Below, in pieces: positions 4,312 through 20,776 of a stretch of DNA of 24,000 bases. A model generated the notes under the pieces. It worked only from the letters and a program-made list of their open reading frames with translations. It ran no database searches and was not told where the DNA came from. Source of the stretch: Saltatorellus ferox (GTDB lineage: Bacteria > Planctomycetota > UBA1135 > GCA-002686595); the NCBI RefSeq assembly GCF_007751475.1, contig NZ_CP036434.1:3391524-3415523 (forward strand). Reading direction: 5' to 3'. The position numbers were made by a program, and so were the translations under genes. Numbering within the stretch: position 1 is the stretch's first letter; each line of letters begins with the position of its first letter.

Positions 4312-4395
4312 TTGGAGATCCGAGTTGGGTGGACGGAAGTTCTGAGCAGGATATCGCTCAGGCGGAGTGCGTGGATGCACTATAGTTTCCAGGGC
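4312..4395. promoter_or_regulatory. divergent boxC / boxR control region with candidate operators
   Basis: 84-bp gap between divergent starts. It contains inverted repeat CTGAGC (4342-4347) N8 GCTCAG (4356-4361), and GTGC-N6-GCAC (4367-4380) that includes a TGCA core (GATGCACTATAG). No promoter hexamers assigned. Confidence 0.4.
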
Positions 4396-5145
4396 ATGAC
4401 GAAGCAAGGGGATCAGGCGCTGCTCCAGGCGCTGGGTGCGCGTATTCGCCGCACGCGGGAGGCCCTGGGCCAAACCGTGACGGGCCTGGCGGAGCGCGCG
4501 GGCGTTTCGCGGCGTTATGTCACGGAGGCAGAGGCGGGGAGGGCGAACTTGACCGTGCTCAAGCTGGCCGCCATGGCGGGGGCCCTTCGGATGTCCCTGG
4601 CGGAGCTCTGCGACCTCCCGGCGGCCTCGCCCAGGACCGAGCGGATCGCCCTCGTGGGCCTGCGCGGCGCGGGGAAGTCCACGGTGGGGCGCCTGCTGGC
4701 CCGGGAGCTGGAGACGCCCTTCGTCGAGCTGGACGAGCGGGTGGAGCGGCTCGCAGGCCTCTCGCTGACCGCTATTTTCGACATCCAGGGCGTCGAGACC
4801 TACCGCCGGCTGGAGCGCGAGGCCCTGGAGGACGTCCTCGCCGAGGGCCAGCGCCAGGTCATCGCGACCGGCGGCTCCATCGTCACGAGCCCCGAGACCT
4901 TCGCACGTCTGCGCGAATCCTGCCGGACCGTCTGGCTCCGCGCGGCGCCCGAGGCGCATCTGGCGCGCGTTCTCAGCCAGGGTGATCATCGACCCGTCGA
5001 GGGGCACCCGCGCGCCCTCGACGAACTCCGTGAGATCCTCGCCCGGCGCGAATCGCTCTACGCCCAGGCGGACGAGCATCTACAGACGGACGAGTCGGCC
5101 CCGGCGGCCGTGGTCCAGGCGCTGCTGGAGCGCCTGGGGGCCTGA
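4396..5145 (+). CDS. boxR: BoxR/BzdR-type regulator (XRE HTH fused to shikimate-kinase-like P-loop domain)
   Basis: C-terminal part of track ORF 3034..5145. MTKQGDQALLQALGARIRRTREALGQTVTGLAERAGVSRRYVTEAEAGRANLTVLKL is an XRE-type HTH. It is followed by a Walker-A GLRGAGKST and shikimate-kinase-like sequence (FVELDERVERLAGLSLTAIFD...). It is divergent from boxC. An alternative in-frame ATG lies at 4375. Confidence 0.8.
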   Translation: MTKQGDQALLQALGARIRRTREALGQTVTGLAERAGVSRRYVTEAEAGRANLTVLKLAAMAGALRMSLAELCDLPAASPRTERIALVGLRGAGKSTVGRLLARELETPFVELDERVERLAGLSLTAIFDIQGVETYRRLEREALEDVLAEGQRQVIATGGSIVTSPETFARLRESCRTVWLRAAPEAHLARVLSQGDHRPVEGHPRALDELREILARRESLYAQADEHLQTDESAPAAVVQALLERLGA

Positions 5146-5173: not shown

Positions 5174-6160
5174 TCAGGGCTGCTCGGCCACGATCACGAA
5201 GTGCCCCTGGTCGAGCTCCTCTTCGGTGAGCGGCTCCAGCACGGTCGGCATCCGCTCGATCATCGACACGACGGCCACGTTCAGGGACGGGTCCCGCAGC
5301 TTGAGCCGCTCGACCGTCCCGAGGCCGAAGTCGCTGTGGAAGCGCCCGTTCCAGTGGATCACCTGTGGCTTCTGCCCCGTGACCGGGTCGGCGGCCGCGG
5401 CCTCCAGCGCCAGCGCCATGCTCTCGGCCATCGTGTCGTCCTTGAGGCACTGCGCCTCATAGACGCGGTTCATGATGGCGTCGTCGACTCCGTTCCCGTG
5501 GCCGCCCATGACCTCGGTGAAGCGGCGGTGGTACTCGCTGTCCATGGGCGCGTGGATCGTGCGGGCCGCCCAGGGATCGCCGATCGCGGCCCTCGCGCCA
5601 TCGCGGGCCACACGCGAGGCGATCGGGCGATAGACGTTGGCCGCGAGGACAGGGAAGCCCTGCTCCTTGCAGAACTCGACGGCGGCGCGGTAGTGCTCGT
5701 CGTAGTTGGGCCAAAGACGCGCGATGCCCTTGAACGCCTCTTCCGACAGCGCGCCGGAGAGGTACAGATCGAGGCTCGCCTGGGCGTCCCGCTCGAACAT
5801 CTCCATGGACAGGATGATGTTGCCGCGTCGCCGGCCGAGCGCTTCCGTCAGCGCCAGCTGCACCGCGTGCCCTGCCGCGTTGTCGTGCTGCTCGCCCAGG
5901 AAGACCACGTCCGCGTCGGCGAGCACGTCGACCGCTTCCTCCAGGGTGACGCTGGTGCCAGCCGGCGTTCGAATGAGGTAAGCTGGCCCGGTGGCGCCGG
6001 TCGCAGCGCGCGTCTCGGCGGAGAGCTTCAGCGGCTGCATGGACTGTCCCGGGCTGGAGCACGCAGCGGCCAGCACGAGCAGGAGGCCAGCGGGGATCCC
6101 GCGATGATGCGCCGCGCCGACTCCTGGGAGAACAGCGGCGGTTCCGTTCCGTCGTTTCAT
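5174..6160 (-). CDS. ChaN-like (haem-binding uptake / Tiki superfamily) lipoprotein
   Basis: Track ORF 5174..6178 trimmed to ATG 6160 (MKRRNGTAAV...), with GAGGA about 7 nt upstream. It has a signal peptide with lipobox LAAAC, the motif VVFLGEQHDNAAGH, and a layout typical of the ChaN/PF04187-type family as I recall it. Confidence 0.65.
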   Translation of the reverse strand: MKRRNGTAAVLPGVGAAHHRGIPAGLLLVLAAACSSPGQSMQPLKLSAETRAATGATGPAYLIRTPAGTSVTLEEAVDVLADADVVFLGEQHDNAAGHAVQLALTEALGRRRGNIILSMEMFERDAQASLDLYLSGALSEEAFKGIARLWPNYDEHYRAAVEFCKEQGFPVLAANVYRPIASRVARDGARAAIGDPWAARTIHAPMDSEYHRRFTEVMGGHGNGVDDAIMNRVYEAQCLKDDTMAESMALALEAAAADPVTGQKPQVIHWNGRFHSDFGLGTVERLKLRDPSLNVAVVSMIERMPTVLEPLTEEELDQGHFVIVAEQP

Positions 6161-6210
6161 GCGGAGATCCTCGCACAACGGAACCCGGCGCGTTCGTTTC
6201 TAATAGGGCC

Positions 6211-9200
6211 ATGCTCGTTCAGATTCTGTCTGCATGCGTCCTGTCGCTTCCCCTGCCCCTTCCAGGCGTGTCCAGCGGCTCCGCGGCGCCTCCCCTGGAC
6301 TCCACGTCAGAGCTCGCGCTGGAGGCTGGCCGCGCCGCCGTGAAGCGCGGCCAGCCGGATCGGGCGCGCGAGCACTTCGAGCGCGCCCTCGCGTCGGCGG
6401 AAACACGCGCGGAGGCGGCGTTCGAACTCGGAGAACTCGCGCGCGCGGCGGGCGACGTGGACCGAATGGCCACGGCCGCGCTGATCCACGCCGAAGCGAC
6501 CGTCGACCCCCGCGGTTCTGGCGTCGCCAGCCCGCGCGGCGCCTGGACCATCGGCGGGAAGGAACTCGACGTCCAGGGGCTCGCGAAACGCGCCGCCGCC
6601 GCGCGCGTCCAGCTCGCCAACGCGCTGCTCGGCGTCGCCCAGGACCACGAGTCCAAGGGCTCGCGCTCACCCGAGGACCTTCTGACGGCGGCCTGGTCCC
6701 GGCGCTTCGCGCTGGACCTCGTCCAGCGCACGGCGAGGGTCGCGGAGGCGATGGGTCCAGCGCTCAAGCCGGACGTCTCGGTTCCCGCGGGCGCCCACGG
6801 CCCTGTGCTGAAGGCGCTCGATCGCGTGGGGGCGCGCGCGATCGCGACCGGCGACCTCGGCACGGCGATCCGCGCGGGTCGGATCCTCCGGGGTCTCGGC
6901 GTCCAGGCGGACTTCAGCGACCTGCGCGGAGATCGGCCGAGCGGCATGGCGAAGTGGCGGGCCAAGGGGTCCGATATCCTCGACAAGGCGCGCGAGCGCC
7001 AGGCGGAGCGCTCGGACAAACCGTGGACGGTGGAGGATCTGGAGTGGCTCAGCCTGCACGAGGGCGAGTCGTTCACGCGCAGTCACTCGAGCTTCGCCGA
7101 ACCCGGTGTCGCCGTTTCGCCGCGCGGCTACTACCGGATCGAATCGGACTGCGGGTACGAGACGCTGCTCGCGGTCGCGCGAACCATCGAGGATCACCAC
7201 GAGCGGCTGGCGAACTACTTCGGGTCGGATCCGTTCGTCAGGAACGGGACGAAGGTCGAGCGCCAGGGCCTGATCCGGATCGTGCCGGACCCGAGCGGCC
7301 TCGAGGCCGAGGGTGCGCCGTTCTTCTGGGTCGGCGGCTTCCAGAGCGGAGACACGACCGTCGTGCGCCTGGCCGCGGGCACGATCGAGGGCCTCGGGCG
7401 AACGCTGACCCACGAGCTGACGCACCGCTTCGACGGGGCCCTGCACGGCGGGATTCCGGCCTGGCTCGCAGAGGGTCGCGCGGTCTGGACGGGCGGCGCG
7501 TACGCGCGAATCGAAGACCACAGCTTCGTGGACGACTACGCGTCCCACGGCACGCTCATCAGCGTCGTGAATCGTGGACTGAGCAGCCCGCGAACGCTGA
7601 CGAACATCCTGAGCGGCACGCCCGGGGACTATCGGCAGAACTACAGCGCCGGCAACGCGCTCTACGTCTTCCTTTCGACGTGGTTCCCGGGCAACGCGCC
7701 GTCGATGTCCGGGGGCCAACCGCTGTTCCGCGATCTCCTGCACACGTACGAGGACCAGGGCAAGCACCCGTCGAAGCCCGACGATCTCTTCGAGGAGTTC
7801 GTCGATCACTTCTGCGACGGAAAGAACGGCCGGCCGTCTTCGTTCGACGAGTTCCAGGAGATGTTCACGGAGTTTCTCCGGGGCTTCGCGCTGCGTGAGA
7901 AGGCGCCGTTCACGAAGCGCTACATGAACACGCTGGAGGATCGTGAGGGAGCGACCTGGATCTACGACGAGCCGACCTGGACCTGGGACTGGGTGCGAGC
8001 GGAGCCGCTGTTCGGTCAGAACCAGGCGCGCGAGGCTGGCGCGCTCTTGCTGGAGTTCGGGAAGCCCGAAGAGGCGATCCGCGCGCTCGTCTGGGCGCGC
8101 GCGGTGGACGGATACGATCCGCGTACCGCGGCGTACCTCGTCGAGGCCTTCGAGAAGCTGAAGTCCCCATCGCTGCGCGAACGTGAAGCGCTGTGGACCG
8201 TTCAGCACGAGCGCAACGGCGAGCCGTTCGCCTCGCGCGTGCACGAGAAGTCGGCGCGCGCCCGGCTCGGGGCCTTCCCCGGCGATCTCAAGGCCGTCGA
8301 TGCCTGTCTCGCCGAACTCGGCGCGGTGGCGGCGGCGCTGGCCGCAGGCGGAGCGCCGGAATCCGCGCGCCGGGTGGCGGGCGACGCCGAGCGCGTGGCG
8401 GCCTGGGCCGGAGAGAGGGTCGGAGAGAGGGCCGGAGAGGAGACGGCGGCCCCGGGGGCCGTTGACCAGGCGATCGCGATCCCACCAGGCGAGCCCGACG
8501 AACTCGGTGGCTGGGTCGAGGAGTCCCTGACCCGCCTCGACGAGGATCGACCCGAGGGGCTCTACTTCGTCGAGGACGACGGGACGCTGCTCCTCGGAAG
8601 GAACTCGGCGCGGACGTCGACCGGCCGCTTCGATCGAAACGGCGGCGGTCGCTCCTTCGTGCGCGCGTCGCGCTGGATGCTTCCGGGCACCTACCGAATC
8701 CAGACGCGGATGAACTTCACGACCGCCTACGCCACCGGTCTGATCGTGCTGGGCTGGTCGAGCCGCGAGCGGAACATCCGCATTCCGCTGACCGCAGGCG
8801 ACGTCCAGTACGCGATCGGCGAGTCGGACGAGGAGCCGTCCTTCGACAAGGTGAACTGGCGCTTCGACGGGATGCGTACGCGGGAAGGCGGTCTCTGGAC
8901 CTCCGTCCGAGGCGGCGCCATCGAGCTGGATCCGCCCAGCGCTTCCATCGAGATCGAACTGCTGATCACGGGGCCGGTGGCGAGTCTCTGGATCGCAGGG
9001 CAGTTCGCGGGCTCCTACCACACCGTCGACGGTGCGCCCATCGAGGGCTACGTCGGCTTCGGCACCATGAGCGGTACGATCGCCGTCGCGCCGCCCATCG
9101 TGCGCCGCCTGGACCGCCAGCCCGTGGCGATCCTCGACCTCGATCGCGGAACCGGCCCCGAGTTCGACCGTCTGCGCAACGTCAGCGTCTACTTCGGCGA

Positions 9201-9777
9201 TCAGATGGAGCCGCCGACGAACGGTGCCCTCGTGCTCTGGATCCCGTCGGATGGGAAGGCGGGCTCCATCTCCAGCGCGGACGACGAGGGAGGAGAACTC
9301 TCCGCCGAAGACCAGAGGGACGACATCACGCGCGAGATCGCGCGCGCCCGCCGAACCGCGGTCCAGCTACTGGAGCGAATGTCCCGCAACGGCGTGGGCC
9401 AGCCCCTCGTGGTCGCCTTCCCCCGGCGCTTCGAGAAGGTCCTCGATCGTGCGGCGTTCGACGCCGAACTCCAGGACTCCGCGCCGGAGAACAGCGTTCC
9501 GCCCAGGATCGTGTTCCACGGGGTGACGGACCCCGCCGCTGCCGAGGACGAAGCCTCGGACGAGCACCGCTTCGAAGCGATCGACCAGGGCCGCCGCTGG
9601 CTGATCTTCGTCGACGGCTTCGGCGTCGCTCGGATGTGTCAGACGTTCACGAGCGCGGCCGCGATCAGCCAGCACCAGCTGGAGCACTGGCTGACGGTCT
9701 TCCGCGATCATGGCCGCCCGGAGCGCAAGCTGCCGGAGTTCAGCCGCCCGCCGGCCGAAGAGGACGAAGGGCAGTAG
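6211..9777 (+). CDS. large secreted multidomain protein with HExxH zinc-peptidase-like motif
   Basis: 1188-aa ORF with good codon bias throughout. The hydrophobic N-terminus is MLVQILSACVLSLPLPLPGVSSG. There is an Ala/Arg-rich helical (TPR-like) N-region, and LTHELTHRFDG (HExxH) near residue 400. A region around residues 800-950 (WMLPGTYRIQTRMNFTT...GYVGFGT) resembles a jelly-roll/LamG-like domain. The C-terminal tail is acidic. Beyond the HExxH motif the assignments are weak. Confidence 0.7.
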   Translation: MLVQILSACVLSLPLPLPGVSSGSAAPPLDSTSELALEAGRAAVKRGQPDRAREHFERALASAETRAEAAFELGELARAAGDVDRMATAALIHAEATVDPRGSGVASPRGAWTIGGKELDVQGLAKRAAAARVQLANALLGVAQDHESKGSRSPEDLLTAAWSRRFALDLVQRTARVAEAMGPALKPDVSVPAGAHGPVLKALDRVGARAIATGDLGTAIRAGRILRGLGVQADFSDLRGDRPSGMAKWRAKGSDILDKARERQAERSDKPWTVEDLEWLSLHEGESFTRSHSSFAEPGVAVSPRGYYRIESDCGYETLLAVARTIEDHHERLANYFGSDPFVRNGTKVERQGLIRIVPDPSGLEAEGAPFFWVGGFQSGDTTVVRLAAGTIEGLGRTLTHELTHRFDGALHGGIPAWLAEGRAVWTGGAYARIEDHSFVDDYASHGTLISVVNRGLSSPRTLTNILSGTPGDYRQNYSAGNALYVFLSTWFPGNAPSMSGGQPLFRDLLHTYEDQGKHPSKPDDLFEEFVDHFCDGKNGRPSSFDEFQEMFTEFLRGFALREKAPFTKRYMNTLEDREGATWIYDEPTWTWDWVRAEPLFGQNQAREAGALLLEFGKPEEAIRALVWARAVDGYDPRTAAYLVEAFEKLKSPSLREREALWTVQHERNGEPFASRVHEKSARARLGAFPGDLKAVDACLAELGAVAAALAAGGAPESARRVAGDAERVAAWAGERVGERAGEETAAPGAVDQAIAIPPGEPDELGGWVEESLTRLDEDRPEGLYFVEDDGTLLLGRNSARTSTGRFDRNGGGRSFVRASRWMLPGTYRIQTRMNFTTAYATGLIVLGWSSRERNIRIPLTAGDVQYAIGESDEEPSFDKVNWRFDGMRTREGGLWTSVRGGAIELDPPSASIEIELLITGPVASLWIAGQFAGSYHTVDGAPIEGYVGFGTMSGTIAVAPPIVRRLDRQPVAILDLDRGTGPEFDRLRNVSVYFGDQMEPPTNGALVLWIPSDGKAGSISSADDEGGELSAEDQRDDITREIARARRTAVQLLERMSRNGVGQPLVVAFPRRFEKVLDRAAFDAELQDSAPENSVPPRIVFHGVTDPAAAEDEASDEHRFEAIDQGRRWLIFVDGFGVARMCQTFTSAAAISQHQLEHWLTVFRDHGRPERKLPEFSRPPAEEDEGQ

Positions 9778-10881: not shown

Positions 10882-11201
10882 GGTGAGCTGGAGAACGGAG
10901 AGGCCCGTGGCCCAGGTTCACCGTCGAACCAGGCGCCACATGGGGCCTCATCCTACGATCCAGGAAGATTTCCTGGTAACTTTGGGCGGCGCGATGGCAC
11001 AGCAGGTACCTGAGCAGGAGACCGCTGAATGGAGCCGCCAGGCTCAACGGGCATGAGCGGGCGGCCGGCTGGCAACTCCGGGGGCTTGCTCAAGCAACCC
11101 TGGAGAGGGGCGTCGGCGGCGCCCTGAGGGGGCGCGGCGGGCTCGTGGGGGATAGCTCTCGTCCCCTCGATCGCGCGGAAGCGGGGCCTGCCGCTTGCCG
11201 A

Positions 11202-12065
11202 TCAGGTCAGCTGGCCGAAGCGGCGCAGGTGCTTCTTCTTCACCTGAACCCAGGTGAGGAAGTCGATCGTTCCGAACTCATGATCGATGGCGGGCGGGCC
11301 GAGGACCAGCGCTCCGTTGCGCAGGTACGACGCGAAGAGCTTGGGGATCTCCACGTCGCCCGTGCCGGAACCGCCCTTGCGCAGCGGCCAGTCGAGGAGC
11401 GGGCAGGCCGTCGCGAGACGCGGCGGGGCGTAGAGCGTCGGGTGGACCTTGTCGTCGGCGAGGAGCTTCGCGTAGAGCGCGATGCCCTTGAGCGGGTCCG
11501 TTCCCGTGAGCGAGCTGCAGCCGAAGAAGGCCTCGGCGCCCACGTGCTGCTGATAGGCGATCAGACCCTGCCAGAGGAGGAACAGGACGCTCTTGTGACG
11601 GTGGGGACGCGCCACGCAGGCGCGGCCCAGCTCGACCGCGCGGTTCAGCGTATCCAGAGGAATGCGATCGAGTTCGAACTCGCCCGAGGTGTACCAGCCG
11701 TGACCGGCGGCAGCGGACTCGGCCGTTTGCATCCGGTAGGTCCCGATCACCGCGCCGGTCTCTACGTGGAGGACCATGAGATGCTGGCACTGGCGGTCGA
11801 AGGCGTCGGCATCGAGGCCGGTCTCGTGGGCGCCGTTGAGGCCCTCACCCAGCTCGACGTTGAAGACCGCGTAGCGGAGTCGGCGGACGGCTTCGAGGTC
11901 CGAGCCGGTCCGCGCGAAGCAGAGTCGGTAGGGGCCGAGCGTGACGTCGATGGACGGGACGAGATCGATGCCGTAAAGCAGATCCTCGCTGCCGGATCGG
12001 GTGGCGGCTGGCTGCATACGGGAGATCGGATCTCCGGAGAACGGGCCTTGGCTGCGTGAGGGCAT
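11202..12065 (-). CDS. OlsB-like GNAT-family lipid N-acyltransferase (hemolysin-like/Acetyltransf_5 type)
   Basis: C-terminal 287 aa of track ORF 11202..12683. The core LRYAVFNVELGEGLNGAHETGLDADAFDRQCQHLMVLHVETGAVIGTYRM and the tail IDHEFGTIDFLTWV are characteristic of ornithine/glycine-lipid N-acyltransferases. The start is placed at ATG 12065 (MPSRSQG...), with an alternative ATG at 12017. Neither has a clear SD. Confidence 0.75.
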   Translation of the reverse strand: MPSRSQGPFSGDPISRMQPAATRSGSEDLLYGIDLVPSIDVTLGPYRLCFARTGSDLEAVRRLRYAVFNVELGEGLNGAHETGLDADAFDRQCQHLMVLHVETGAVIGTYRMQTAESAAAGHGWYTSGEFELDRIPLDTLNRAVELGRACVARPHRHKSVLFLLWQGLIAYQQHVGAEAFFGCSSLTGTDPLKGIALYAKLLADDKVHPTLYAPPRLATACPLLDWPLRKGGSGTGDVEIPKLFASYLRNGALVLGPPAIDHEFGTIDFLTWVQVKKKHLRRFGQLT

Positions 12066-12208: not shown

Positions 12209-14830
12209 CTACGTCCTGTGGGACCGTTGTTTTCGCCGATATCGAACCCATTCGCGAAGAACCTGGCCGGCGCTCGCCTTGGGGGCCCCCGCGGCCGCGT
12301 TGCGGGCGCCGATCGAGTAGGCGAGCGCCCACTGCGCGAAGAGGATCCGATAGGAGGCCAGGATCGAGTGCTTCGGGTCGTAGAGGTTGGTCGCCTCGGA
12401 CGTCACGCCGTTGAGTTCGATCACGCCGAGGCTCTCCCCCCGGGCGAGATGCTCCGCCGAGGGAGCGCGCAGATCGTAGCGGCCGAAGAAGAAGCCCTCG
12501 TAGCCGCGGGACAGCTCCTCGACCGCTGCTTCGAGCTCGGGCGTGATGAGGTGGGCGCCCTCCAGGAAGAGCGCGCCGCGCGCGTGGGTGCCGACCTTCA
12601 CGAGCTGGACCTTCTCGCCGGGCGCAGGCACCTCGCTCGCGCGTTTTCCCAGCTCCTTCAGGTACGTCGCGTGGAGCGCGCACGCGCGCGGATCGTCCAG
12701 CAGCAGCTCCTCGACGGTGCGCTTCCCGTCGCCCTTGACCTCGGGCAGCACCTTGGTCGTGATCGCGAAGATCGAGCCCTTTTCCTGGCCCGGCTCGCGC
12801 GTGTAGAAAACGCCGAACTCCTCGCCGTCGAGTCGCTCTTGGAGCAGCGCGTCATGGTCGAGCGCGCGCACGCGTTCCACGAGATCTACCTCGCTCTTCA
12901 CGGAGGCAACGCCGGACCCGCGCTGGCCCTCGTTGGGTTTCAGGATGACCGGATAGTCGAGCGCGTGCTTCCCCATGAACGCGAGCGCGGCCTCGGCGCG
13001 GGCGTCGGGGCCAGCGGCTGCCTCGAGCAGCACGAACAGAGGGACCTCCGGTCGATCCACCCCGAGTCCTTCCAGGATTTCCGCCTTCGATTCGCCGATC
13101 AGCCCGCCCATGGGCATGGCCGGATTCGACGCGGTGAAAGCGAACGCGCCACGGTGCTTGATCGACAGCCAGACGAGCCACGGAACGAGCGGCAGGTAGG
13201 CGACGTAGGGGGGCCAGAACTCGAAGCGTGTCAGCCTCAGCCACTTGCCGCGCAAGAGGCGCCGTCCCTTGTGCGTGAAGAGCAGCGGCAGAAGACGGTA
13301 CGCCTGCAGCAGCACCACGATGAGCGCAAGGATGAACGGGAGCTGGCGCGCCCCCAGGCCTCCGATGGCTTCGGCCAGCTGCTCGCCCGCGAGCGCCGCG
13401 ATACCGACGAGCGCCGGCGTCCAAAGGAGGCCGGCGACCGCGAAGAACAGCGCGAACGTCGCGAAGCGCGTTCGCAGCACGCCCGCGGCCACGTAGGTGG
13501 GGAGGCGTAGCCCTGGCGTGAAGCGCGAGAGGAAGATGACGCCGATGCCCTTGGACTCGAACCACTGGCTCGCCCGCTCGACGGCCTCATCGGACACGAA
13601 CCAGCGGAACGGACGGCGGCGCAGCGCGGGGCGACCGAAGGTACGACCCAGGAGATAGAGCCCGATGTCGCCGACGAAGATCCCGACGAAGCAAGCGAGC
13701 GACGCGGCCACGAAGCCTATGCGGCCGTCGGCCACGAGGAGCCCCGCCGCGATGCACGCGAGGTCCTCGGAGACGAACGTCGCGACCGCGAGCAGCGCGA
13801 GGATCGTCAGAAGCGCCGGGCCCTCGAACGGCGGCACCTGCGCCGGATCGAAGGGCTCAGCCGCCAGCGCCCGCGCTTCGCCGGGCAGGTCCGATCGCCG
13901 CGGTGCCTCGCCAGCCTCGACGCGGTCCACGAACCGCGCGATCAAGGTCGCCACTCGCTCCGTTTGCAACCAGGGAAGGAAGTGGCTCGCGGGGCTGTCG
14001 AGCACGATGAGATCGGCCTGGGGCACGATGCGCGCGTGCTCCTCTGCGGCGGCCACGGGCACGAGGAAATCGTCTTCACCGTGGAGGATCAGCGTCGGGA
14101 CGTCGAGTGCCTCCAGGATGGGCCGGAGCCGCCGCTGGTCGGTGTCGTAGAAGTTGCGGCCGTACGGGACGCCGAGCATGGCCCGGTCGAACGCGCCGAA
14201 GTGGGGGACGAGCCAGCGCAGCGCTCGGAGCGCGCCCAGCTGGAGCCCGTGGATGCCGTGGTTGAGCGTATGGCCTCCGAGGAGCTCCAGCTCGATCACG
14301 CCGATGGCGGCGAGCAGCGTCAGCGACTCGACCCGCTCGGGCGCGCGGTCGATCATCTCCAGCGCGACGCCGCCGCCCATGCTGAAGCCGACGGCGTGCA
14401 CGCGCTCGATACCGAGTTCGTCCATCAGCTCGAGGCAGTAGCCCGCGTGGGCGCGCACCGAGACGTCGGGGATGTCTTTCGACGACTGTCCGAAGCCGGG
14501 CAGGTCGGGGGCGATCAGGCGGAAACGGTCGCGCAACAGCGGGACCACGTCGCGGAAATCGCTGCCGGAGCCAGGGCTGCCCTGGAGTAGCAAGAGCGCG
14601 GGCGCGGCCTTCGGCCCCGCGTCGAGGTAGGCGATCCGGACCGAGGCGTCGGTGCCGGGAGGCGAGGTCTCAAGTCCGTCCGAACCGAGAGCTGGCACGG
14701 TGGTGAAGGCAAAACCCGCGCGCGGCGCTTCGGGCGCGGGCGCTCGCCCGAGCATGGTCGCCCAGGAAACAGCGAGCGCGAGCGCGTAGAGACCGAGGAC
14801 GATCTTCCAGGCGGAGAACCGGCGCTTCAC
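12209..14830 (-). CDS. tri-domain membrane protein: alpha/beta-hydrolase + DedA/VTT (SNARE-associated) domain + ATP-grasp carboxylate-amine ligase
   Basis: Track ORF 12209..15076 trimmed to GTG 14830 (VKRRFSAWKIVLGLYALALAVSW, an N-terminal TM anchor), because upstream codons overlap the better-coding NRDE gene.
- Hydrolase domain: LLLLQGSPGSGSDF, nucleophile elbow GFSMGG, HGEDDFLVP (Asp), SPASHFLPW (His).
- DedA/VTT domain: FVSEDLACIAAGLL...FVGDIGLYLLGRTFG...FLSRFTPGLRLPTYVAAGV.
- Two further TM helices follow.
- ATP-grasp domain: YPVILKPNEGQRGSGVASV...GVFYTREPG...GRYDLRA...GVIELNGVTSEATNLYDP.
Total 873 aa. Confidence 0.75.
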   Translation of the reverse strand: MKRRFSAWKIVLGLYALALAVSWATMLGRAPAPEAPRAGFAFTTVPALGSDGLETSPPGTDASVRIAYLDAGPKAAPALLLLQGSPGSGSDFRDVVPLLRDRFRLIAPDLPGFGQSSKDIPDVSVRAHAGYCLELMDELGIERVHAVGFSMGGGVALEMIDRAPERVESLTLLAAIGVIELELLGGHTLNHGIHGLQLGALRALRWLVPHFGAFDRAMLGVPYGRNFYDTDQRRLRPILEALDVPTLILHGEDDFLVPVAAAEEHARIVPQADLIVLDSPASHFLPWLQTERVATLIARFVDRVEAGEAPRRSDLPGEARALAAEPFDPAQVPPFEGPALLTILALLAVATFVSEDLACIAAGLLVADGRIGFVAASLACFVGIFVGDIGLYLLGRTFGRPALRRRPFRWFVSDEAVERASQWFESKGIGVIFLSRFTPGLRLPTYVAAGVLRTRFATFALFFAVAGLLWTPALVGIAALAGEQLAEAIGGLGARQLPFILALIVVLLQAYRLLPLLFTHKGRRLLRGKWLRLTRFEFWPPYVAYLPLVPWLVWLSIKHRGAFAFTASNPAMPMGGLIGESKAEILEGLGVDRPEVPLFVLLEAAAGPDARAEAALAFMGKHALDYPVILKPNEGQRGSGVASVKSEVDLVERVRALDHDALLQERLDGEEFGVFYTREPGQEKGSIFAITTKVLPEVKGDGKRTVEELLLDDPRACALHATYLKELGKRASEVPAPGEKVQLVKVGTHARGALFLEGAHLITPELEAAVEELSRGYEGFFFGRYDLRAPSAEHLARGESLGVIELNGVTSEATNLYDPKHSILASYRILFAQWALAYSIGARNAAAGAPKASAGQVLREWVRYRRKQRSHRT

Positions 14831-14833
14831 GGG

Positions 14834-14857
14834 AGCGGACAAGTCAGCGGACAAGTC
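14834..14857. repeat. perfect tandem duplication of a 12-mer (AGCGGACAAGTC x2)
   Basis: 14834-14845 and 14846-14857 are identical. On the minus strand this reads GACTTGTCCGCT twice. It spans the NRDE-gene stop codon and the 25-nt spacer before the fusion-gene GTG, and it creates two in-frame TGA codons 12 nt apart. Confidence 0.9.
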
Positions 14858-15647
14858 AGGCGCCGCTGCGCGGCAGGTCCAGCGCGACGGAGACCTCCGT
14901 CGCATGGGGCGGGCCCGGGCGGTACTCGAAGTGGACGTTCGACTTCGTGACGACGATGTGGCACTGGCTCCGCGTGGCTGCGTCCGCGCGCTGCATCGTC
15001 GGCGTGAAAGCCGTCGGGCCACGCTCGGCGTCCACGTGACGCTGGAAGGCAGCGAGTCTCTCGGGATCCGGCGCATCGGCGCGCTTTTTCTCCTCTCCGC
15101 CGAGGACCAGAGAGGTGTAGAGCGCGCGCCTCGAAAGCTGGACCTCGTCCTGCTCGAAGCTGGAGGACGTGAGCGGCAGCTGGCGCTCGCCGCTGACGTC
15201 GATGGCCACGGTCAGTCCATCCCAGCGCGCGACGAGCGCGGGATCGCCCGGCGCCTTCAGCACCACGACCGCCGGCCGGTAGGGCGCCAGCTCGTGCGGT
15301 GACAGCATCGCGAGCGACTCGAGCGGACGCTCCAGCGACGCCAGCAGGCGAACGAGCGCTCCGCGGCTCTGGTAGTGCTCCAGCGTCGGGCCGCGGCTCA
15401 CGATGTAGCCGTTGAGGAGCGCCACCGTCAGCCCGTGTTCGTTCGCCGCGATCCAGGTACCGCCCGCCTCGCTGTCCCCCGGTGCGATGTAGCGCACGCC
15501 CTCCGGCGAGGTCTGGATCCGCGGCGGGATCTCGGGACCACGCGTCAGCAGCTCATCCCGGTTGAACCAGAGCGAATAGCCCGACTCCTCCGGATCAGGG
15601 GGCGAATCCTCACCAGCGCGCTGGCTCGTCCAGGTCAGCGTGCACAC
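14856..15647 (-). CDS. NRDE/TANGO2-family protein with N-terminal Cys
   Basis: C-terminal 263 aa of track ORF 14856..16349. The start is placed at GTG 15647, so the protein begins (M)CTLTWTSQ..., followed about 30 aa later by WFNRDE. This is the MC...NRDE pattern of the NRDE/TANGO2 family. The rest of the 497-aa ORF upstream is Arg/Pro-rich and overlaps the DinB-like gene in another frame. Confidence 0.7.
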   Translation of the reverse strand: MCTLTWTSQRAGEDSPPDPEESGYSLWFNRDELLTRGPEIPPRIQTSPEGVRYIAPGDSEAGGTWIAANEHGLTVALLNGYIVSRGPTLEHYQSRGALVRLLASLERPLESLAMLSPHELAPYRPAVVVLKAPGDPALVARWDGLTVAIDVSGERQLPLTSSSFEQDEVQLSRRALYTSLVLGGEEKKRADAPDPERLAAFQRHVDAERGPTAFTPTMQRADAATRSQCHIVVTKSNVHFEYRPGPPHATEVSVALDLPRSGA

Positions 15648-16207
15648 GTTTCGCTCGCCCGCTTCGCCTCGGCCTGCTGTGCCCAGTAGCGAATCGTCGA
15701 GGGCGCCACGCCGAACTCCGATCCAGGATCGCCGCCGCCCGACCGGACGGCGACGGCGATCAGCGCGTAGTGGTGGACCGTGTGGCTGACGAGCGACTGA
15801 AGTTCGCGGCTCACGTTCGACGGGACCCAGGGGGATCCGTCGGAGCGCACGCGGAGGGCCGCGTCGTTCCTGACCCGGTCGATGCTGGCGGCGCGCTGCA
15901 AGCGCTCGATCGTCGTCCGCAAGACCGCGGTCGCATACTCGGGATCGATCTCCACGCGAGGGTCGCGCTCCCGTGCGTCGTAGTCGACCTCGGGCACCTC
16001 GTTCGGGCCGAGTTCCGTCCGCTCCACCGCGGCCAGGAGGCGCTGGTAGAAGTCCACGACGTGCCGCAGGTGCGGCCCGACGCCAGACAGGGCGAGCGCG
16101 GGGGCGTTCTCCGTGAACTGGGCGGAGTCGAGGGCTGAGACGAGGGCCACTCCCTGGCGAAGGACCGCCAGGTTGTCGTCGATCAGCTGCTGTACGGTGG
16201 ACGTCAT
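15635..16207 (-). CDS. DinB-like (DinB_2 four-helix-bundle, metal-binding His) protein
   Basis: 190-aa ORF MTSTVQQLIDDNLAVLRQGVALVSAL... with spaced His motifs (GPHLRHVVDFY, VSHTVHHYALI) typical of the DinB superfamily. Its ATG overlaps the upstream PlsC stop (ATGA, 16204-16207). Its 3' end overlaps the NRDE start by 13 nt. Confidence 0.6.
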   Translation of the reverse strand: MTSTVQQLIDDNLAVLRQGVALVSALDSAQFTENAPALALSGVGPHLRHVVDFYQRLLAAVERTELGPNEVPEVDYDARERDPRVEIDPEYATAVLRTTIERLQRAASIDRVRNDAALRVRSDGSPWVPSNVSRELQSLVSHTVHHYALIAVAVRSGGGDPGSEFGVAPSTIRYWAQQAEAKRASETCAR

Positions 16208-17085
16208 CGGGACGTGATCGGAGTCGTGGGGCCGGCCGAGGAGTCAGCTTTGGAATCGGCCGCCGCGTCAGCGGCGGTGGCTCCCTGGCTGGCGGCTTCC
16301 CGAGAAGGGGTGAAGCAGCGTTCCGTGGCCAGCTGGGCGGCCTGGGCAAGCGCTTTACGGGCGCCGGCTTCGCTCTTCTCGGGCGTGCGGAGGATTTCGG
16401 GGGAGAAGGTTACGGTGGCGACGGTTCGGGGCTGATTCAAGAACGTGAGGAAATGCGACCCGAAAGGGGCGTCTCCCCACCAGCAGACGGCCTCCCAGGC
16501 CGGCCTGGGGCCCCGGGGGGCGTGATAGTGGAGAGCGGCGACCCGGACCGGCACCCCTGTTTCGACGGGGACCTCGAACAGTGACGGCTTGAATCGTTCT
16601 ACCTGGGAGCCGTCGGTGCTCGTGCCCTCGGGGAAGACGATGACGCCGGGGCCGCGGGCCAGGACGCTCTTCACCTCGGTGATCACGCGGGTCAGGTCGC
16701 GCTTGCGGCTGCGGTCCACGAAGAGCGTGCCCGTGCTGCGCGCCAGGAACCCGAGGACCGGCCAGCTGGCGATCTCGCTCTTCGCCAGGAACCGAGCGTC
16801 GAGCCGGCTCAGGAGGAGCGGGATGTCGACGTACGAGAGGTGATTGGCCACCAGGAAGTAGGCTTCCTCCTCGCCGGCGCGCCTGGGCACGGGGCCCTCG
16901 AAGCGCGCTTCCACGCCCATGATCCAGAGCACCGCGCGGGCCCAGGTCCCGATCCAGAGCCGCTGCAACGGCGCATCCGTGCCAGGGATGAGCCAGGCGA
17001 CGGGCCGCGTGAGGAGCCACCCGAGGAAGAGTGGGACCGTGACGCACGGCAGGAGCAGCAGTCGTAGGAGGACCCGGAGGGACAT
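16204..17085 (-). CDS. PlsC-family lysolipid O-acyltransferase (OlsA-like)
   Basis: 293-aa ORF with an N-terminal TM segment, the HX4D acyltransferase motif (ANHLSYVD), FVDRS and the VFPEGTST motif. The C-terminal tail is Ala/Ser-rich. Confidence 0.8.
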   Translation of the reverse strand: MSLRVLLRLLLLPCVTVPLFLGWLLTRPVAWLIPGTDAPLQRLWIGTWARAVLWIMGVEARFEGPVPRRAGEEEAYFLVANHLSYVDIPLLLSRLDARFLAKSEIASWPVLGFLARSTGTLFVDRSRKRDLTRVITEVKSVLARGPGVIVFPEGTSTDGSQVERFKPSLFEVPVETGVPVRVAALHYHAPRGPRPAWEAVCWWGDAPFGSHFLTFLNQPRTVATVTFSPEILRTPEKSEAGARKALAQAAQLATERCFTPSREAASQGATAADAAADSKADSSAGPTTPITSR

Positions 17086-17167: not shown

Positions 17168-18922
17168 CTACTTCTTGCCCGTCCGCCCGCTGGCGGACAC
17201 CTGGCTCGGCGAATCAGGTGCAGCCTTGGGAAAGGCCACCGCGACCGCCTGGCTCGGCTGGGCCGCCACGGGGGCCGTGGTGGGCTCCTGGCCGCTGGCC
17301 GTGCAGGTCACCGTCATGGGCTGACCGGGGCGGATGAGGTAGCGGCGCGGCTGAAGCGATTCCGCGTCTCGGCCCGTGAACGTGAGCGCCCGATGGTCGC
17401 CGGACAGCTCCACCGTGGCCCGGGCCCAGGCCTTGCGGCCCTCCTCGCTCTGGCGCCATTCCACGGGGCATTGAACGCTCAGGCCGACGACGGGGGCCCG
17501 CGCGACCTGCGGCCCTCCCGAGACCACGAGATTCTGGTCGAGCGGCTCCCGGTCGCCGAACGGCGACACCACGTCCACGAGGTGGATGCCGGCGTGAAGT
17601 CCCTCCAGAATGGCCTCCCCCGACGCGGTCGACTCGGCGAGCGCGCTCACCCGTGCCAGGCCGATCGGCTGGAGTTCGACCCCGCCTTTCCGACAGACCT
17701 GGGCATTCACATCCGGTGACCGCGCGGAGGACTTGACGAAGACGAATCCATCGACCTGGACAGGGAGTCCCCGGGCATCGAAAACGGAGATGACAGAGGG
17801 GTCCACTCTTGCCTGGAGCTGACAGCCCGCCACCGGTTCCTGGAAGGGATCGAGGACTTCGAAGCGGTGCCTGGGCGGCCTGATCCCTCGCAGCGTGGTC
17901 GGGACCTGCACCACGTTCTCCGGGTCGTCGTCGCCTTCCAGCAGCGCGGAGACGTCGATCAGATCCCCCGCCATCGCGGGCGATTCCGGGATCCCGAGGA
18001 TGACGGTCCACGTGGACTCCGTGGTGAAGCGGAGCATCGGCGCGCGCCGCGCTTCCCTTTCGCCGAAGGAGAGCGAGTCCAGCACCTGCACGTCACCGTT
18101 CTCCCTGATCGTGACGAGGGCGCAGCGCCCCGAGAACGACTTGCGAACCTCCCCGGGCCGGGGCCGGTCGGCCGGTCTCGACGCCAGGCGCAGACGGCCA
18201 TCCATCGGGACGAGCGTCACGGTGGGCGTGGCGGTGAACGTCAGGCCGTCCATGCCCCAGCTGCTGGGATAGATCTTGACGCTGGTCGGCAGCGCGTCCA
18301 AATGGTCGACGGTCAGCACGACGACAGGAGCGTCTTGAACCGGGCGATCCACGAGCTGGACCGAGGGTTGTTCCAGGAGGAACCCACTCCCCGTCGCGCG
18401 GCTGCCGCCGTAGTCCGCGATCAGCTGGACCGGATGGCCAGGATCGAAGAGGCGGATCCGATGGGCGTCGATGAGCGGGCGAATGATGAAGGAGGCTTTT
18501 ATCTCAGCAGGTGCTGGCGGAAGCGCGTAGCCGAGCGTCTCGAGTTCCTTCTTCTTCGCGCGCCTCTCCCGCCGGCCGGGCCTGCTCTGGTCCCGAACCA
18601 AGTCCCCGGAGGGGGAATTCTCGGAGCGTTCGGGCGGTGGCTCCGAGCCCATCGCGCGTGCGGCGCGGTCGGGGAGATCGGTCAGGGCGACCTCAGCGGT
18701 TCGTACCTCGGCCGCTGCGGGCGGGTCGCCTGCGAAAGCAATGGTGGCGGGCAGCGTCTCGGACTGGCCGCGCTCCAACGAACGCACGACGCCGAACGCG
18801 ATAAGGGCCACCGCAGCGACGGCGGCTGCGATCCTGAGAGCGTTCTTACGCTGGCGAGCGGAGCGAGCATTCATGCGGGCAGCGGGGAAGAAGTGAGGAG
18901 GTCTGCGACCTGTCGCGGTCAC
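17168..18922 (-). CDS. membrane-anchored protein of unknown function
   Basis: 584-aa ORF with good third-position bias. It has a basic N-terminus followed by one TM helix (ALRIAAAVAAVALIAFGVV), a charged linker (RRERRAKKKELE), then a ~430-aa predicted extracytoplasmic beta-rich region. GTG 18922 overlaps the stop of the upstream small ORF (GTGA). An alternative ATG lies at 18874 (MNARSARQRKN...). Confidence 0.6.
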   Translation of the reverse strand: MTATGRRPPHFFPAARMNARSARQRKNALRIAAAVAAVALIAFGVVRSLERGQSETLPATIAFAGDPPAAAEVRTAEVALTDLPDRAARAMGSEPPPERSENSPSGDLVRDQSRPGRRERRAKKKELETLGYALPPAPAEIKASFIIRPLIDAHRIRLFDPGHPVQLIADYGGSRATGSGFLLEQPSVQLVDRPVQDAPVVVLTVDHLDALPTSVKIYPSSWGMDGLTFTATPTVTLVPMDGRLRLASRPADRPRPGEVRKSFSGRCALVTIRENGDVQVLDSLSFGEREARRAPMLRFTTESTWTVILGIPESPAMAGDLIDVSALLEGDDDPENVVQVPTTLRGIRPPRHRFEVLDPFQEPVAGCQLQARVDPSVISVFDARGLPVQVDGFVFVKSSARSPDVNAQVCRKGGVELQPIGLARVSALAESTASGEAILEGLHAGIHLVDVVSPFGDREPLDQNLVVSGGPQVARAPVVGLSVQCPVEWRQSEEGRKAWARATVELSGDHRALTFTGRDAESLQPRRYLIRPGQPMTVTCTASGQEPTTAPVAAQPSQAVAVAFPKAAPDSPSQVSASGRTGKK

Positions 18923-19513: not shown

Positions 19514-19838
19514 GAGTGTATTTCCCAAAGGCGCCCTGGACCTGCTCGTGCTCAAGGTCCTCCAGTCCCAGAGCCTGCACGGCTACGGGATCGCGGCGCG
19601 CATCCAGGAGCTGAGTGAGGAGGTCCTCGCCGTCGAGGAGGGCACCCTTTACCCGGCCTTGCACAGGATGGAGCGCACGGGCTGGATCAAGTCGAGCTGG
19701 CAGCCGAGCCCCACGGGGCGGCGCGCGCGCTTCTACGAGCTGACGGGCAAGGGGCGCAAGTACCTCGCGGCCGGCGTGAGCGAGTGGGAGACCACGAACC
19801 GAGCCATCGGTCGCGTGCTGGGAACGGAGCCCGCATGA
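19512..19838 (+). CDS. PadR-family transcriptional regulator
   Basis: 108-aa ORF. LDLLVLKVLQSQSLHGYGIAARIQELSEEVLAVEEGTLYPALHRMERTGWIKSSW...RRARFYELTGKGRKYL is a canonical PadR winged helix. Confidence 0.9.
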   Translation: MSVFPKGALDLLVLKVLQSQSLHGYGIAARIQELSEEVLAVEEGTLYPALHRMERTGWIKSSWQPSPTGRRARFYELTGKGRKYLAAGVSEWETTNRAIGRVLGTEPA

Positions 19839-20776
19839 GTCGAGACCAGGCCGCCTTCGAGTTCGGTGAAGACGACGCGCCCGCGCGTTCGGAGCGCGAG
19901 CGCATCGAGCAAGAGATCGATGAGGAGATCCGCTTTCACCTCGAAGCGCGCGCCCGCGCGCTGGAGGAAGCCGGCCTCGACGCGAGGGCGGCGCATCGAA
20001 CGGCGCTCGCGTACTTCGGCGACCGGCGCCGGATCCGCCGGGCCTGCCTCGTCCAACGCCAATGGAGACCCATCATGCTGCAGAGACTTCATCTCGCGAC
20101 CACCGTCCTCCTGCTCGTCGCCGCGGCGATCCTCGGCGCGCGCTCCCTGCTGGCGGAAGCTGCCTACGAGTCACGCCTGGAGGAGCTTGGTGAAGCTGTC
20201 GAGCGCTTGCAGGCGTCCGCTTCGGCAAGTCTTGCTCCTGGCGCCATCGTTGCGCCCGGTCTTCCTCCAAAGCGGGTCGACCTGTCGACCATCGCTGTGG
20301 GCGACGTCCTGGAAGTGAGGAATGAGGCCCATCAAGACCTTCATGTCGTCTGCTCGGTGTGCTATGACGGCATGATTCTCTTGCCGCAGCTGGGCTGGTT
20401 CATGGCCGCTGGCAAGACACTTCCGGTCATCGATGCGGAGCTCAACACAGCCTTCTACGCCTACTACACCACGGCTCCGAAGATCGTCACGATGCTGAAA
20501 GAGGCAGCACTCATTCGGGTCGAGCCCGATTCGGATCGTCCCATCGCACCCGGCGATTACCTCCGTCTCTATGATGAGGCGCATCCATTCGACGTCAACT
20601 TCACCATCATGGTGGATCCAGACGGGACACTGCTTCTGGATCAGCTAGGCCGTTTTCACGTGGCCGGGTACACCCGCAGTGATCTGGAGACGATCCTGGT
20701 GGACCGCTCCCGACCATTCTTCACCGAGGAGCCCGTGATCCGCGTCACGGTAACGGACGCACCCCGCCCCAAATAG
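19835..20776 (+). CDS. PadR-coupled membrane protein: permease-prefix-like N-terminus, one TM, two Poly_export/SLBB-like repeats
   Basis: Track ORF 19784..20776 trimmed to ATG 19835, which overlaps the PadR stop (ATGA).
- The N-terminus ERIEQEIDEEIRFHLEARARALEEAGLDARAAHRTALAYFGD resembles the cytoplasmic prefix of PadR-associated permeases.
- TM helix: LHLATTVLLLVAAAILGA.
- Two repeats follow of the pattern GD.L.....E......V..DG...LP.LG....AG.T: GDVLEVRNEAHQDLHVVCSVCYDGMILLPQLGWFMAAGKT and GDYLRLYDEAHPFDVNFTIMVDPDGTLLLDQLGRFHVAGYT. Confidence 0.65.
   Translation: MSRDQAAFEFGEDDAPARSERERIEQEIDEEIRFHLEARARALEEAGLDARAAHRTALAYFGDRRRIRRACLVQRQWRPIMLQRLHLATTVLLLVAAAILGARSLLAEAAYESRLEELGEAVERLQASASASLAPGAIVAPGLPPKRVDLSTIAVGDVLEVRNEAHQDLHVVCSVCYDGMILLPQLGWFMAAGKTLPVIDAELNTAFYAYYTTAPKIVTMLKEAALIRVEPDSDRPIAPGDYLRLYDEAHPFDVNFTIMVDPDGTLLLDQLGRFHVAGYTRSDLETILVDRSRPFFTEEPVIRVTVTDAPRPK

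Follow-up and report, generated by a model that had tools for sequence, protein, structure and literature searches.

The minus strand of a 24,000-nucleotide stretch of the Saltatorellus ferox genome (contig NZ_CP036434.1, positions 3,391,524 to 3,415,523; hereafter, the window) encodes an 873-residue fusion of an alpha/beta-hydrolase, a DedA/VTT membrane core and an ATP-grasp ligase domain, and this protein is very probably an accessory enzyme of aminolipid metabolism that acts at the membrane. Aminolipids, that is, ornithine lipids and their relatives, are widespread stress and phosphate-sparing lipids. The strongest evidence for the assignment is genetic: relatives of the fusion are linked to three non-homologous aminolipid synthase systems, which argues that the family acts on acyloxyacyl aminolipids. 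The fusion may be a bifunctional lipid-modifying synthase/translocator, and would come close to an enzyme class of its own if ligation on a lipid were confirmed.

The fusion gene sits in a tight minus-strand array in the order OlsA-like, DinB-like, TANGO2-like, fusion and OlsB-like. The first gene of this apparent operon (16204..17085) encodes a PlsC-type O-acyltransferase (Pfam Acyltransferase, E 3.5e-21) whose best NCBIfam match is OlsA, the lyso-ornithine lipid O-acyltransferase (E 2.5e-39; 135 bits against a cutoff of 300). Immediately downstream of the fusion, on the same strand, lies a gene for a GNAT N-acyltransferase (11202..~12065; Pfam Acetyltransf_5, E 9.5e-27), with start candidates at ATG 12251, TTG 12173, ATG 12065 and ATG 12017; it is best matched by OlsB, the ornithine N-alpha-acyltransferase (E 7.5e-35; 121 bits against a cutoff of 350). 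An open reading frame (ORF) of 304 residues on the opposite strand (11145-12059, plus), which has no Pfam match and gave tblastn matches in 46 loci, was rejected as an antisense shadow of the OlsB-like gene.

The window genes were compared by tblastn with 80 related loci, 62 of which carried enough flanking DNA to be informative. An OlsB-like match was found in 65 of the 80 loci and an OlsA-like match in 56, the latter always on the strand of the fusion. Within the informative set, the OlsB-like gene lay no more than 3.5 kb from the fusion in 54 loci, and 47 loci carried both genes, both on the fusion's strand. The same partners recurred on the same strand, usually in the order OlsB-like, OlsA-like, an optional DinB-like gene, an optional TANGO2-like gene and the fusion. 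The linkage was not confined to OlsBA. In locus L065 an OlsF-like gene immediately follows the three-domain form; a variant made of VTT and ATP-grasp domains, P0183, adjoins an Acyltransf_2+Acetyltransf_5 protein whose N-terminus matches OlsF; and another such variant, P0186, adjoins an OlsH-like GH3 gene (417 bits) and an OlsI-like alpha/beta hydrolase. Taken together, these loci show that the family is genetically linked to OlsBA, OlsF and OlsH/I.

The fusion itself is a genuine, old and widespread gene. It is read in one uninterrupted frame of 873 codons on the minus strand (12209..14830), from a GTG start at 14830 to a TAG stop at 12209-12211. A preliminary description of this DNA had given the right coordinates and had missed the strand; the plus strand of this interval is full of stop codons, and that reading was rejected. 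The translation is 100% identical to an NCBI Saltatorellus ferox entry of 877 residues, which is named only "alpha/beta fold hydrolase", an annotation that completely conceals the ATP-grasp domain. Since the two lengths differ by four residues, the NCBI version presumably starts at TTG 14842. This codon and TTG 14854 are the in-frame alternative starts, and both are yielded by a perfect 12-nucleotide tandem duplication (TGACTTGTCCGC x2; window 14835-14858, minus-strand reading) that spans the TGA stop of the TANGO2-like gene, which leaves the true start ambiguous. The longest possible ORF, reaching to 15076, overlaps the TANGO2-like gene upstream; it was rejected, as the homologues and the NCBI entry start near 14830-14842. 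At the GC content of the window (~68-70%), long spurious ORFs are so abundant that ORF length by itself proves nothing, and a promoter and terminator scan of the window was uninformative.

Homologue searches returned more than 120 full-length relatives at 48-76% identity, and 2421 proteins matched a second family member at E <= 1e-50; an exhaustive search with the ATP-grasp domain gave 972 clusters at E <= 1e-30. In a one-genome-per-species collection, 551 of the 600 pattern matches listed were confirmed, which places relatives in at least 551 species. Among the matches listed, the carriers, as labelled in the records, are mostly metagenome-assembled genomes (MAGs) from Planctomycetota, several classes of Acidobacteriota, Gemmatimonadota, Rhodothermia/Balneolaceae, Krumholzibacteriota, Calditrichota, Verrucomicrobiota and others; the second homologue search and the cluster look-up, with their MAG entries, turned up no cultured carrier with a known lipidome. 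The intact fusion occurs in hundreds of independent assemblies, complete chromosomes included. Because the homologues span so many species and phyla, the gene is no assembly error, and the joining of two or three genes by mistake, which the preliminary description had allowed for, is excluded by the single 873-codon frame, the identity to the NCBI entry and the wide conservation. Some taxon labels are doubtful. Locus L001 is labelled a Paracoccaceae MAG, yet it shares 76% identity and its synteny with the planctomycete gene, and several 'Heliomicrobium/Heliobacteriaceae' MAG labels (L007, L008, L010, L013, L015, L020, L028) stand on loci typical of the Acidobacteriota-like group; mis-binning or mislabelling is possible in these cases.

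The ATP-grasp domain (residues 559-873; 12212..13156) required evidence beyond Pfam, because Pfam on the fusion alone gave ATP-grasp families just at E 0.02-0.15 (lowest 0.019), below their gathering scores. An AlphaFold model of residues 541-873 was confident (predicted local distance difference test, pLDDT, 90.8; predicted template-modelling score, pTM, 0.88), and all the PDB matches that Foldseek listed for it were ATP-grasp enzymes, at probability 1.0. The top match was the G domain of cyanophycin synthetase 7wae (E 3.9e-11), followed by CphA2, GshAB and many Ddl structures. A 31-sequence profile of the domain matched CphA2 7ta5 (E 1e-8) from the lysine of VVLKP (K631) to the E-x-N magnesium motif (E805/N807). 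Pfam RimK was matched by 24 of the 31 family members at E up to 0.1 (best 1.2e-6), a precomputed PF08443 match is present on some homologues, and the best NCBIfam matches of the C-terminal domain were cyanophycin synthetase models. The fold search, the profile and the RimK matches together bear out the ATP-grasp domain proposed in the preliminary description, which had also considered that nucleotide-binding residues might be lacking. They are conserved: K582, K631, E671, R784, D786, E805 and N807 are invariant in alignments of 41 and 31 sequences, and K631, D786, E805 and N807 align with the corresponding residues of 7ta5, where R784 aligns to an isoleucine. What that description had missed is the absence of the canonical N-terminal (Rossmann-like) pre-ATP-grasp subdomain. 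The alignment of profile positions from ~15-19 onward starts at residue 117 of DdlA and at residue 91 of PurD, and in the fusion membrane helices precede this point. The domain is a divergent member of the superfamily that lacks the N-domain.

These data also bear on whether the ATP-grasp domain might be a non-catalytic nucleotide sensor gating the DedA core, or the fusion an assembly or frameshift artefact. Such a view could appeal to the failure of the fusion sequence alone to reach the Pfam ATP-grasp thresholds, and to P0137 (558 residues), an apparent two-domain 'VTT + ATP-grasp' protein that proved to be a frameshift or assembly artefact of a three-domain gene, with the hydrolase encoded just upstream in another frame (L081 991-3610); P0137 was therefore rejected as a true hydrolase-less variant. 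However, the invariant residues include those for catalysis beyond binding (R784, D786, E805 and N807), the intact gene recurs across independent assemblies, and the full-length structure model is confident in every domain (pLDDT 87.8, pTM 0.66). We consider this explanation very improbable.

The membrane part begins with an anchor helix, transmembrane segment (TM) 1, at residues 10-28 (14747..14803), which follows the basic N-terminus MKRRFSAWK, shows in the hydropathy plot and corresponds to a helix at residues 7-28 of the model; it is predicted to run N-in, like TM1 of YqjA. The DedA/VTT core spans residues 337-517 (13280..13822), as judged from Pfam, the alignment to YqjA and the loop charge bias; its VTT_dom (PF09335) match covers residues 360-477 (E 6.6e-19, 69 bits against a gathering cutoff of 33.9). 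The core comprises hairpin 1 (337-367, with Glu355/Asp356), a TM at 373-397, a cytoplasmic loop with hairpin 2 (Arg436/Arg442), and TMs at 456-485 and 495-517. Between the core and the ATP-grasp domain lie a basic amphipathic helix (518-537) and a hydrophobic 'W-E-F-W-P' helix (538-558; together 13157..13279), both delimited by conservation and charge, the latter also mapped at 541-558 by hydropathy and in the model. The N-terminal anchor, the DedA/VTT core and the further TM helices reported earlier are thus all present, the last of these at 456-485 and 495-517 with the hydrophobic helix 541-558 in addition. E537, W539, Y545 and P547 of the connecting segment are invariant in the 41-sequence alignment, and the segment is retained in stand-alone members of ~370 residues, three of which (P0139, P0161 and P0210) begin with it. 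The two helices may therefore tether the ATP-grasp domain to the membrane.

The charge distribution suggests on which side each domain resides. Across 41 homologues, the mean net charge is +2.7 for the N-terminus, -12 for the hydrolase, +7.0 for the loop 398-455 and +5.7 for the loop 518-540. In segment order this pattern agrees with the experimentally mapped topology of YqjA, which runs from an N-in terminus through TM1, a periplasm-entering hairpin, a TM, a cytoplasmic loop and a cytoplasm-entering hairpin to an inside C-terminus (bioRxiv 10.1101/2021.10.18.464800). On account of the charge bias and the YqjA topology, the hydrolase is predicted to be periplasmic, most likely as an insertion in the loop between DedA TM1 and hairpin 1, and the ATP-grasp domain is predicted to be cytoplasmic, on the side where ATP is available. 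The hydrolase would not simply be an N-terminal soluble domain, as in the preliminary description.

Invariant D356, R436 and R442 of the fusion align with D51, R130 and R136 of Escherichia coli YqjA, which, together with E39, are the essential charged residues at the hairpin tips of that protein. By its motif the core belongs to the COG0586 group, and its best NCBIfam DedA match, the undecaprenyl-phosphate transporter UptA, lies far below the equivalog score (63.7 bits against a cutoff of 250). That UptA is the best match, and that the COG0586 signature residues are conserved, would also fit a protein outside aminolipid metabolism, with the DedA core recycling undecaprenyl or another polyprenyl phosphate, the ATP-grasp and hydrolase domains acting on an envelope peptide or polymer, and the OlsBA linkage reflecting nothing but shared regulation. 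Ddl and CphA are the nearest ATP-grasp structures, and some family members have no aminolipid genes nearby, as this explanation would have it. Against it, co-regulation alone hardly explains linkage to OlsBA, OlsF and OlsH/I in different phyla, and the UptA score falls far short of its cutoff. In addition, the neighbourhood contains no conserved genes for peptidoglycan, polysaccharide or cyanophycin, and the ATP-grasp domain lacks the N-subdomain that Ddl-type enzymes use for their soluble substrate. A polyprenyl-phosphate role is distinctly unlikely on this evidence, and the substrate of the DedA core is probably not undecaprenyl phosphate.

The hydrolase domain (residues 40-305; 13916..14713) is an ordinary member of Abhydrolase_1/6. 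The Pfam match covers residues 77-294 (E 6.5e-29, above the gathering score), with an Abhydrolase_1 score of 101.8 bits against a cutoff of 25.8. The complete Ser-Asp-His set recognised in the preliminary description lies in the motifs GFSMGG (148-153), HGEDDF (250-255) and SHF (282-284). These residues, Ser150 (14381-14383), Asp254 (14069-14071) and His283 (13982-13984; all minus strand), are invariant across the 41 aligned homologues and align with the BphD triad. By sequence and fold, the neighbours of the domain are carboxylesterases, C-C hydrolases, a PHB (polyhydroxybutyrate) depolymerase and PlaF (6i8w), a membrane phospholipase A anchored by a single helix. The hydrolase was rejected as an OlsI orthologue, as it is just 24% identical to the OlsI-like neighbour in locus L091, a generic superfamily resemblance.

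The likeness to carboxylesterases and PlaF raises a further alternative, a Lands-cycle repair or remodelling resembling that of LplT-Aas, in which the periplasmic hydrolase would de-acylate an aminolipid or phospholipid, the DedA core would return the lyso-lipid or fatty acid to the inner leaflet, and the ATP-grasp domain would re-activate the fatty acid as an acyl-phosphate and re-esterify or re-amidate it. Lipids can receive acyl groups from acyl-phosphates (PlsX/PlsY), a flippase is coupled to ATP-dependent re-acylation in LplT-Aas, and acyltransferases are present in the operon, all of which count in its favour. So does OlsI, an alpha/beta hydrolase that serves as the O-acyltransferase in ornithine-lipid synthesis, and so does the partner TANGO2 family, which binds acyl-CoA and has been proposed to act on fatty-acid derivatives (PMC11867700, PMC13044924). 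However, the nearest ATP-grasp relatives (CphA, GshF, Ddl and RimK) activate amino-acid or peptide carboxylates and not fatty acids, our literature searches found no ATP-grasp fatty-acid ligase, and the operon already contains dedicated N- and O-acyltransferases. We therefore regard such a repair cycle as unlikely.

The family occurs in several architectures. Besides the three-domain form (~850-900 residues), there are TM-VTT-ATP-grasp proteins (~590-670 residues; P0126, P0132, P0183 and P0186), hydrolase-TM-ATP-grasp proteins without VTT (P0160 and P0201), a TANGO2-TM-ATP-grasp protein (P0190, with a TANGO2 domain at E 8e-66, then a TM helix, then ATP-grasp) and the stand-alone tethered ATP-grasp (~370 residues; P0139, P0161 and P0210). 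Unlike P0137, the other VTT-ATP-grasp forms have their own N-terminal Met and TM helix and look genuine. In separate fusions the ATP-grasp module is joined to hydrolases of two kinds, an alpha/beta hydrolase and a TANGO2-type putative Cys N-terminal-nucleophile (Cys-Ntn) amidase. From this range of architectures and neighbourhoods, the ligase module is the constant core of the family, one that repeatedly recruits a hydrolase (serine or Cys-Ntn) and, as a rule, a translocator of the DedA kind.

Two conserved partner genes had escaped the preliminary description. One, of the DinB_2 type (15635..16207, minus strand; 190 residues; Pfam DinB_2 E 3.5e-4, below the gathering score), overlaps the stop of the OlsA-like gene by 4 nucleotides, encodes a His-rich HxxxxxxxH...HTVHH pattern and stands beside the fusion in 46 of the 80 loci. 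The other, a TANGO2/NRDE-like gene directly upstream of the fusion (14856..15647, minus strand; 263 residues; Pfam TANGO2 E 1.3e-6, above the cutoff), has a GTG start that gives an N-terminal Met-Cys and carries an FNRDE motif; it lies upstream of the fusion in 30 of the 80 loci, and further members of its family were located at L082 3182-5350, L087 7794-8519 and L089 5249-5977. Both genes are found, too, on the flanks of variants without an aminolipid synthase in their vicinity (L087-L089).

The TANGO2-like partner could be read as a source of ammonia. The TANGO2-like protein would act as a Cys-Ntn glutaminase or amidase, and the ATP-grasp domain would use the ammonia that it sets free to amidate the carboxylate of the aminolipid. 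The lipid, zwitterionic before, would become cationic, in functional analogy to lysyl-phosphatidylglycerol (Lys-PG) or to MurT/GatD amidation. The class II glutamine amidotransferases belong to the Cys-Ntn enzymes, and the ATP-grasp carbamoyl-phosphate synthetase uses amidotransferase-derived ammonia. The position of the gene directly upstream in the window and in the 30 loci, its occurrence beside the variants and its fusion to ATP-grasp in P0190 fit this idea, as do the Met-Cys start and NRDE motif of the window protein and the structure of human TANGO2, which suggests a Cys-Ntn hydrolase. On the other hand, TANGO2 is absent from the neighbourhood in 50 of the 80 loci, no glutaminase activity is known for the family, for which published proposals favour fatty-acyl substrates, and a fully capped lipid would offer no anionic group to the DedA Arg pair. 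Ammonia capping of this kind appears quite improbable.

The scheme we favour, and hold tentatively at just short of an even chance, is that the head group of an aminolipid is extended or capped by an ATP-driven ligase, flipped as part of the product by the DedA core and trimmed by the hydrolase in the periplasm. The substrate would be an acyloxyacyl aminolipid of the ornithine-lipid type, the product of the OlsB-like and OlsA-like acyltransferases encoded next to the fusion. At the cytoplasmic face, the ATP-grasp domain, held at the bilayer by the basic and hydrophobic helices, would phosphorylate a carboxylate with ATP. The likeliest target is the free alpha-carboxylate on the N-acylated amino-acid head group, a carboxylate chemically like the peptide C-termini used by the closest relatives, CphA, GshF, RimK and Ddl. 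The acyl-phosphate would then be attacked by an amine (an amino acid, taurine, a polyamine or ammonia) to give a head-group-extended or capped lipid, which the COG0586-type core, with Asp356 and Arg436/Arg442 at its hairpin tips, would move to the outer leaflet. There the periplasmic serine hydrolase would remove the modification or an ester-linked acyl chain and thereby set the steady-state level. What the enzyme acts on, which bond it makes, which way the lipid moves and what the hydrolase cleaves are all inferred here. A precedent for the proposed ligation is the attachment of taurine to the carboxyl group of ornithine lipid, the one ATP-dependent modification of an aminolipid head group that is known, to which no gene has been assigned (PMC12971839). 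Pairs of a synthase/flippase and a periplasmic hydrolase control Lys-PG levels (PMC13197417), and with OlsI an alpha/beta hydrolase already has a part in ornithine-lipid metabolism.

Several observations weigh against this scheme or against the aminolipid assignment in general. In seven of the 62 informative loci with the three-domain form, both the OlsB-like and the OlsA-like gene are absent from the 3.5 kb around it, and an eighth has the OlsA-like gene only; no aminolipid synthase gene was found within 6-7 kb of the stand-alone P0139, the TANGO2 fusion P0190, L087 or L089. The OlsA- and OlsB-like neighbours score well below the equivalog cutoffs, so the amino acid of the head group is not set by them. 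YqjA E39 falls in an alignment gap and has no aligned counterpart in the fusion, where invariant E355 is adjacent, and the studied COG0586 members are proposed undecaprenyl-phosphate flippases in which the Arg pair is thought to bind phosphate. Finally, our literature searches found no ATP-grasp enzyme acting on a membrane lipid, so the proposed ligation has no direct precedent in this superfamily.

Some features of the window and of the related loci stand beside these subjects. In locus L091 (1-5689), an arginase, a pyruvoyl-dependent arginine decarboxylase and a deoxyhypusine-synthase-like gene lie beside OlsH-/OlsI-like genes and a VTT-ATP-grasp variant; this cluster could supply ornithine, or hint at a polyamine as the ligated amine. 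In 12 of the 80 loci an ORF of ~135 residues, not found in the window, lies no farther than ~1 kb from the fusion, mostly just downstream. The ORF was recorded in L014, L032, L041, L048, L054, L056, L058, L060, L064, L076, L080 and L083; in L083 the matching gene, ~4 kb from a stand-alone ATP-grasp, has a weak DoxX_2 annotation, and in L087 (5597-6004) and L088 the ORF is directly upstream of the VTT-ATP-grasp variant. In the window, a 584-residue ORF (17168-18922, minus strand), which may be a gene of the operon, starts the region 83 nucleotides upstream of the OlsA-like gene; neither Pfam nor NCBIfam matched it, and just one of the 80 loci conserves it. Farther away, ORFs on opposite strands compete at 2614-5145 (an enoyl-CoA hydratase on the minus strand against a helix-turn-helix protein and a shikimate kinase on the plus strand), followed by a ChaN-type haem-binding protein (5174-6178) and an 1188-residue protein with tetratricopeptide repeats and a weak peptidase-MA-like match (6211-9777); a Wza-like polysaccharide export protein lies at 19784-20776. 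No link between these other window genes (the hydratase/shikimate kinase region, ChaN, the repeat protein and the Wza-like gene) and the fusion was seen.

The literature found does not address how aminolipids cross the inner membrane, and the fusion family is a candidate both for this crossing and for ATP-dependent modification of the head group, one that is available in a cultured organism, Saltatorellus ferox. The substrates of DedA proteins are debated; here a DedA core is tied covalently to two enzymes and genetically to three aminolipid synthase systems. A bolder and more doubtful proposal is that the family comprises the first ATP-grasp enzyme to act on a membrane lipid, combining a tRNA-independent ligase for ornithine-type head groups, a DedA flippase and a periplasmic eraser. 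If true, the family would represent the missing class of ATP-dependent, cerilipin-type aminolipid carboxyl-amine ligases, uncatalogued lipids would be expected in Planctomycetota, Acidobacteriota and Gemmatimonadota, and a DedA domain would for the first time have a natural substrate assigned by fusion. Bacterial TANGO2 homologues would also be placed in a lipid-amide pathway, which would give the human disease protein a testable biochemical role; the recurring TANGO2-like partner and the TANGO2-ATP-grasp fusion link this human disease gene to a lipid pathway in bacteria that is open to experiment. Human TANGO2 has been proposed to be either a Cys-Ntn hydrolase acting on fatty-acyl derivatives or an acyl-CoA binder (PMC11867700, PMC13044924).

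In the literature on DedA proteins, ATP-grasp enzymes, aminolipids, hydrolase fusions and ATP-grasp lipid ligases we found no description of this family, such a protein is missing from a 2026 review of the enzymes of ornithine lipids, and the database names of family members are generic only. The earlier judgement that the architecture is uncharacterised therefore holds, now for a family spread over at least 551 species. The same description had likened the protein to MprF as a lipid enzyme. A lipid role is strongly backed by the gene context, but membership in the MprF family was rejected, since a Pfam scan of the fusion found neither the flippase domain of MprF (LPG_synthase_TM) nor its aminoacyl-tRNA transferase (synthase) domain (DUF2156/GNAT), and the likeness is one of logic only. 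As in MprF with AcvB/VirJ or PA0919, a cytoplasmic head-group synthase and a lipid translocator would share one chain, and a periplasmic serine hydrolase would control the level of the modified lipid. This synthase/flippase logic is established for MprF (PMC11980842), and MprF/LpiA is paired with the periplasmic aminoacyl-phosphatidylglycerol hydrolase AcvB (PMC13197417); synthase and eraser are encoded together. The analogy is strengthened by the predicted periplasmic placement of the hydrolase. The fusion differs from MprF in that its energy would come from ATP via an acyl-phosphate and not from aminoacyl-tRNA, and in that its genetic partners are aminolipid synthases and not phosphatidylglycerol synthesis genes; its translocator is of the DedA type, and its hydrolase, which belongs to Abhydrolase_1/6 and is not VirJ-type, lies within the same chain.

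With the COG0586 DedA proteins (YqjA, YghB and UptA) the fusion shares the VTT/DedA domain and the two-hairpin architecture, and its D356/R436/R442 align with D51/R130/R136 of YqjA, whereas E39 of YqjA lacks an aligned counterpart, and a 270-residue hydrolase inserted after TM1 and a C-terminal ATP-grasp domain are additions. A survey of DedA fusions lists rhodanese and PAP2 as the sole partners in the COG0586 subfamily. Among soluble proteins, the hydrolase-ATP-grasp and TANGO2-ATP-grasp fusions are paralleled by glutathionylspermidine synthetase/amidase. That enzyme joins an ATP-grasp synthetase and a hydrolase cleaving the same amide in one polypeptide, but its amidase is of the CHAP type, both activities are cytoplasmic and no membrane or lipid part is present.

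The ligase domain shares with the RimK/CphA/GshF/Ddl branch its fold, the ATP-binding Lys (VVLKP), and the Arg/Asp and E-x-N magnesium motifs, and a 'V-x-GDG-x-x-T-x-x-E-L' segment is common to the fusion, CphA and GshF. The substrates of these enzymes are N-acylated amino acids, peptides or cofactors, whose carboxylate is phosphorylated and then joined to an amine. The head group of an aminolipid is an N-acyl amino acid with a free alpha-carboxylate, and is thus chemically what this branch uses. The fusion departs from these enzymes in lacking the N-terminal subdomain, in its predicted tethering to the membrane by conserved basic and hydrophobic helices, and in an identity of 15-20%; no member of the branch acting on a lipid was found in our literature searches. 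The chemistry expected of an ATP-grasp enzyme linked to ornithine lipids, ATP-dependent formation of an amide on the lipid carboxyl, is that of the cerilipin-making ornithine-lipid taurine transferase (PMC12971839). That activity was described in the Alphaproteobacteria Gluconobacter/Gluconacetobacter, whereas the fusion family was found in Planctomycetota, Acidobacteriota, Gemmatimonadota, Rhodothermia and others.

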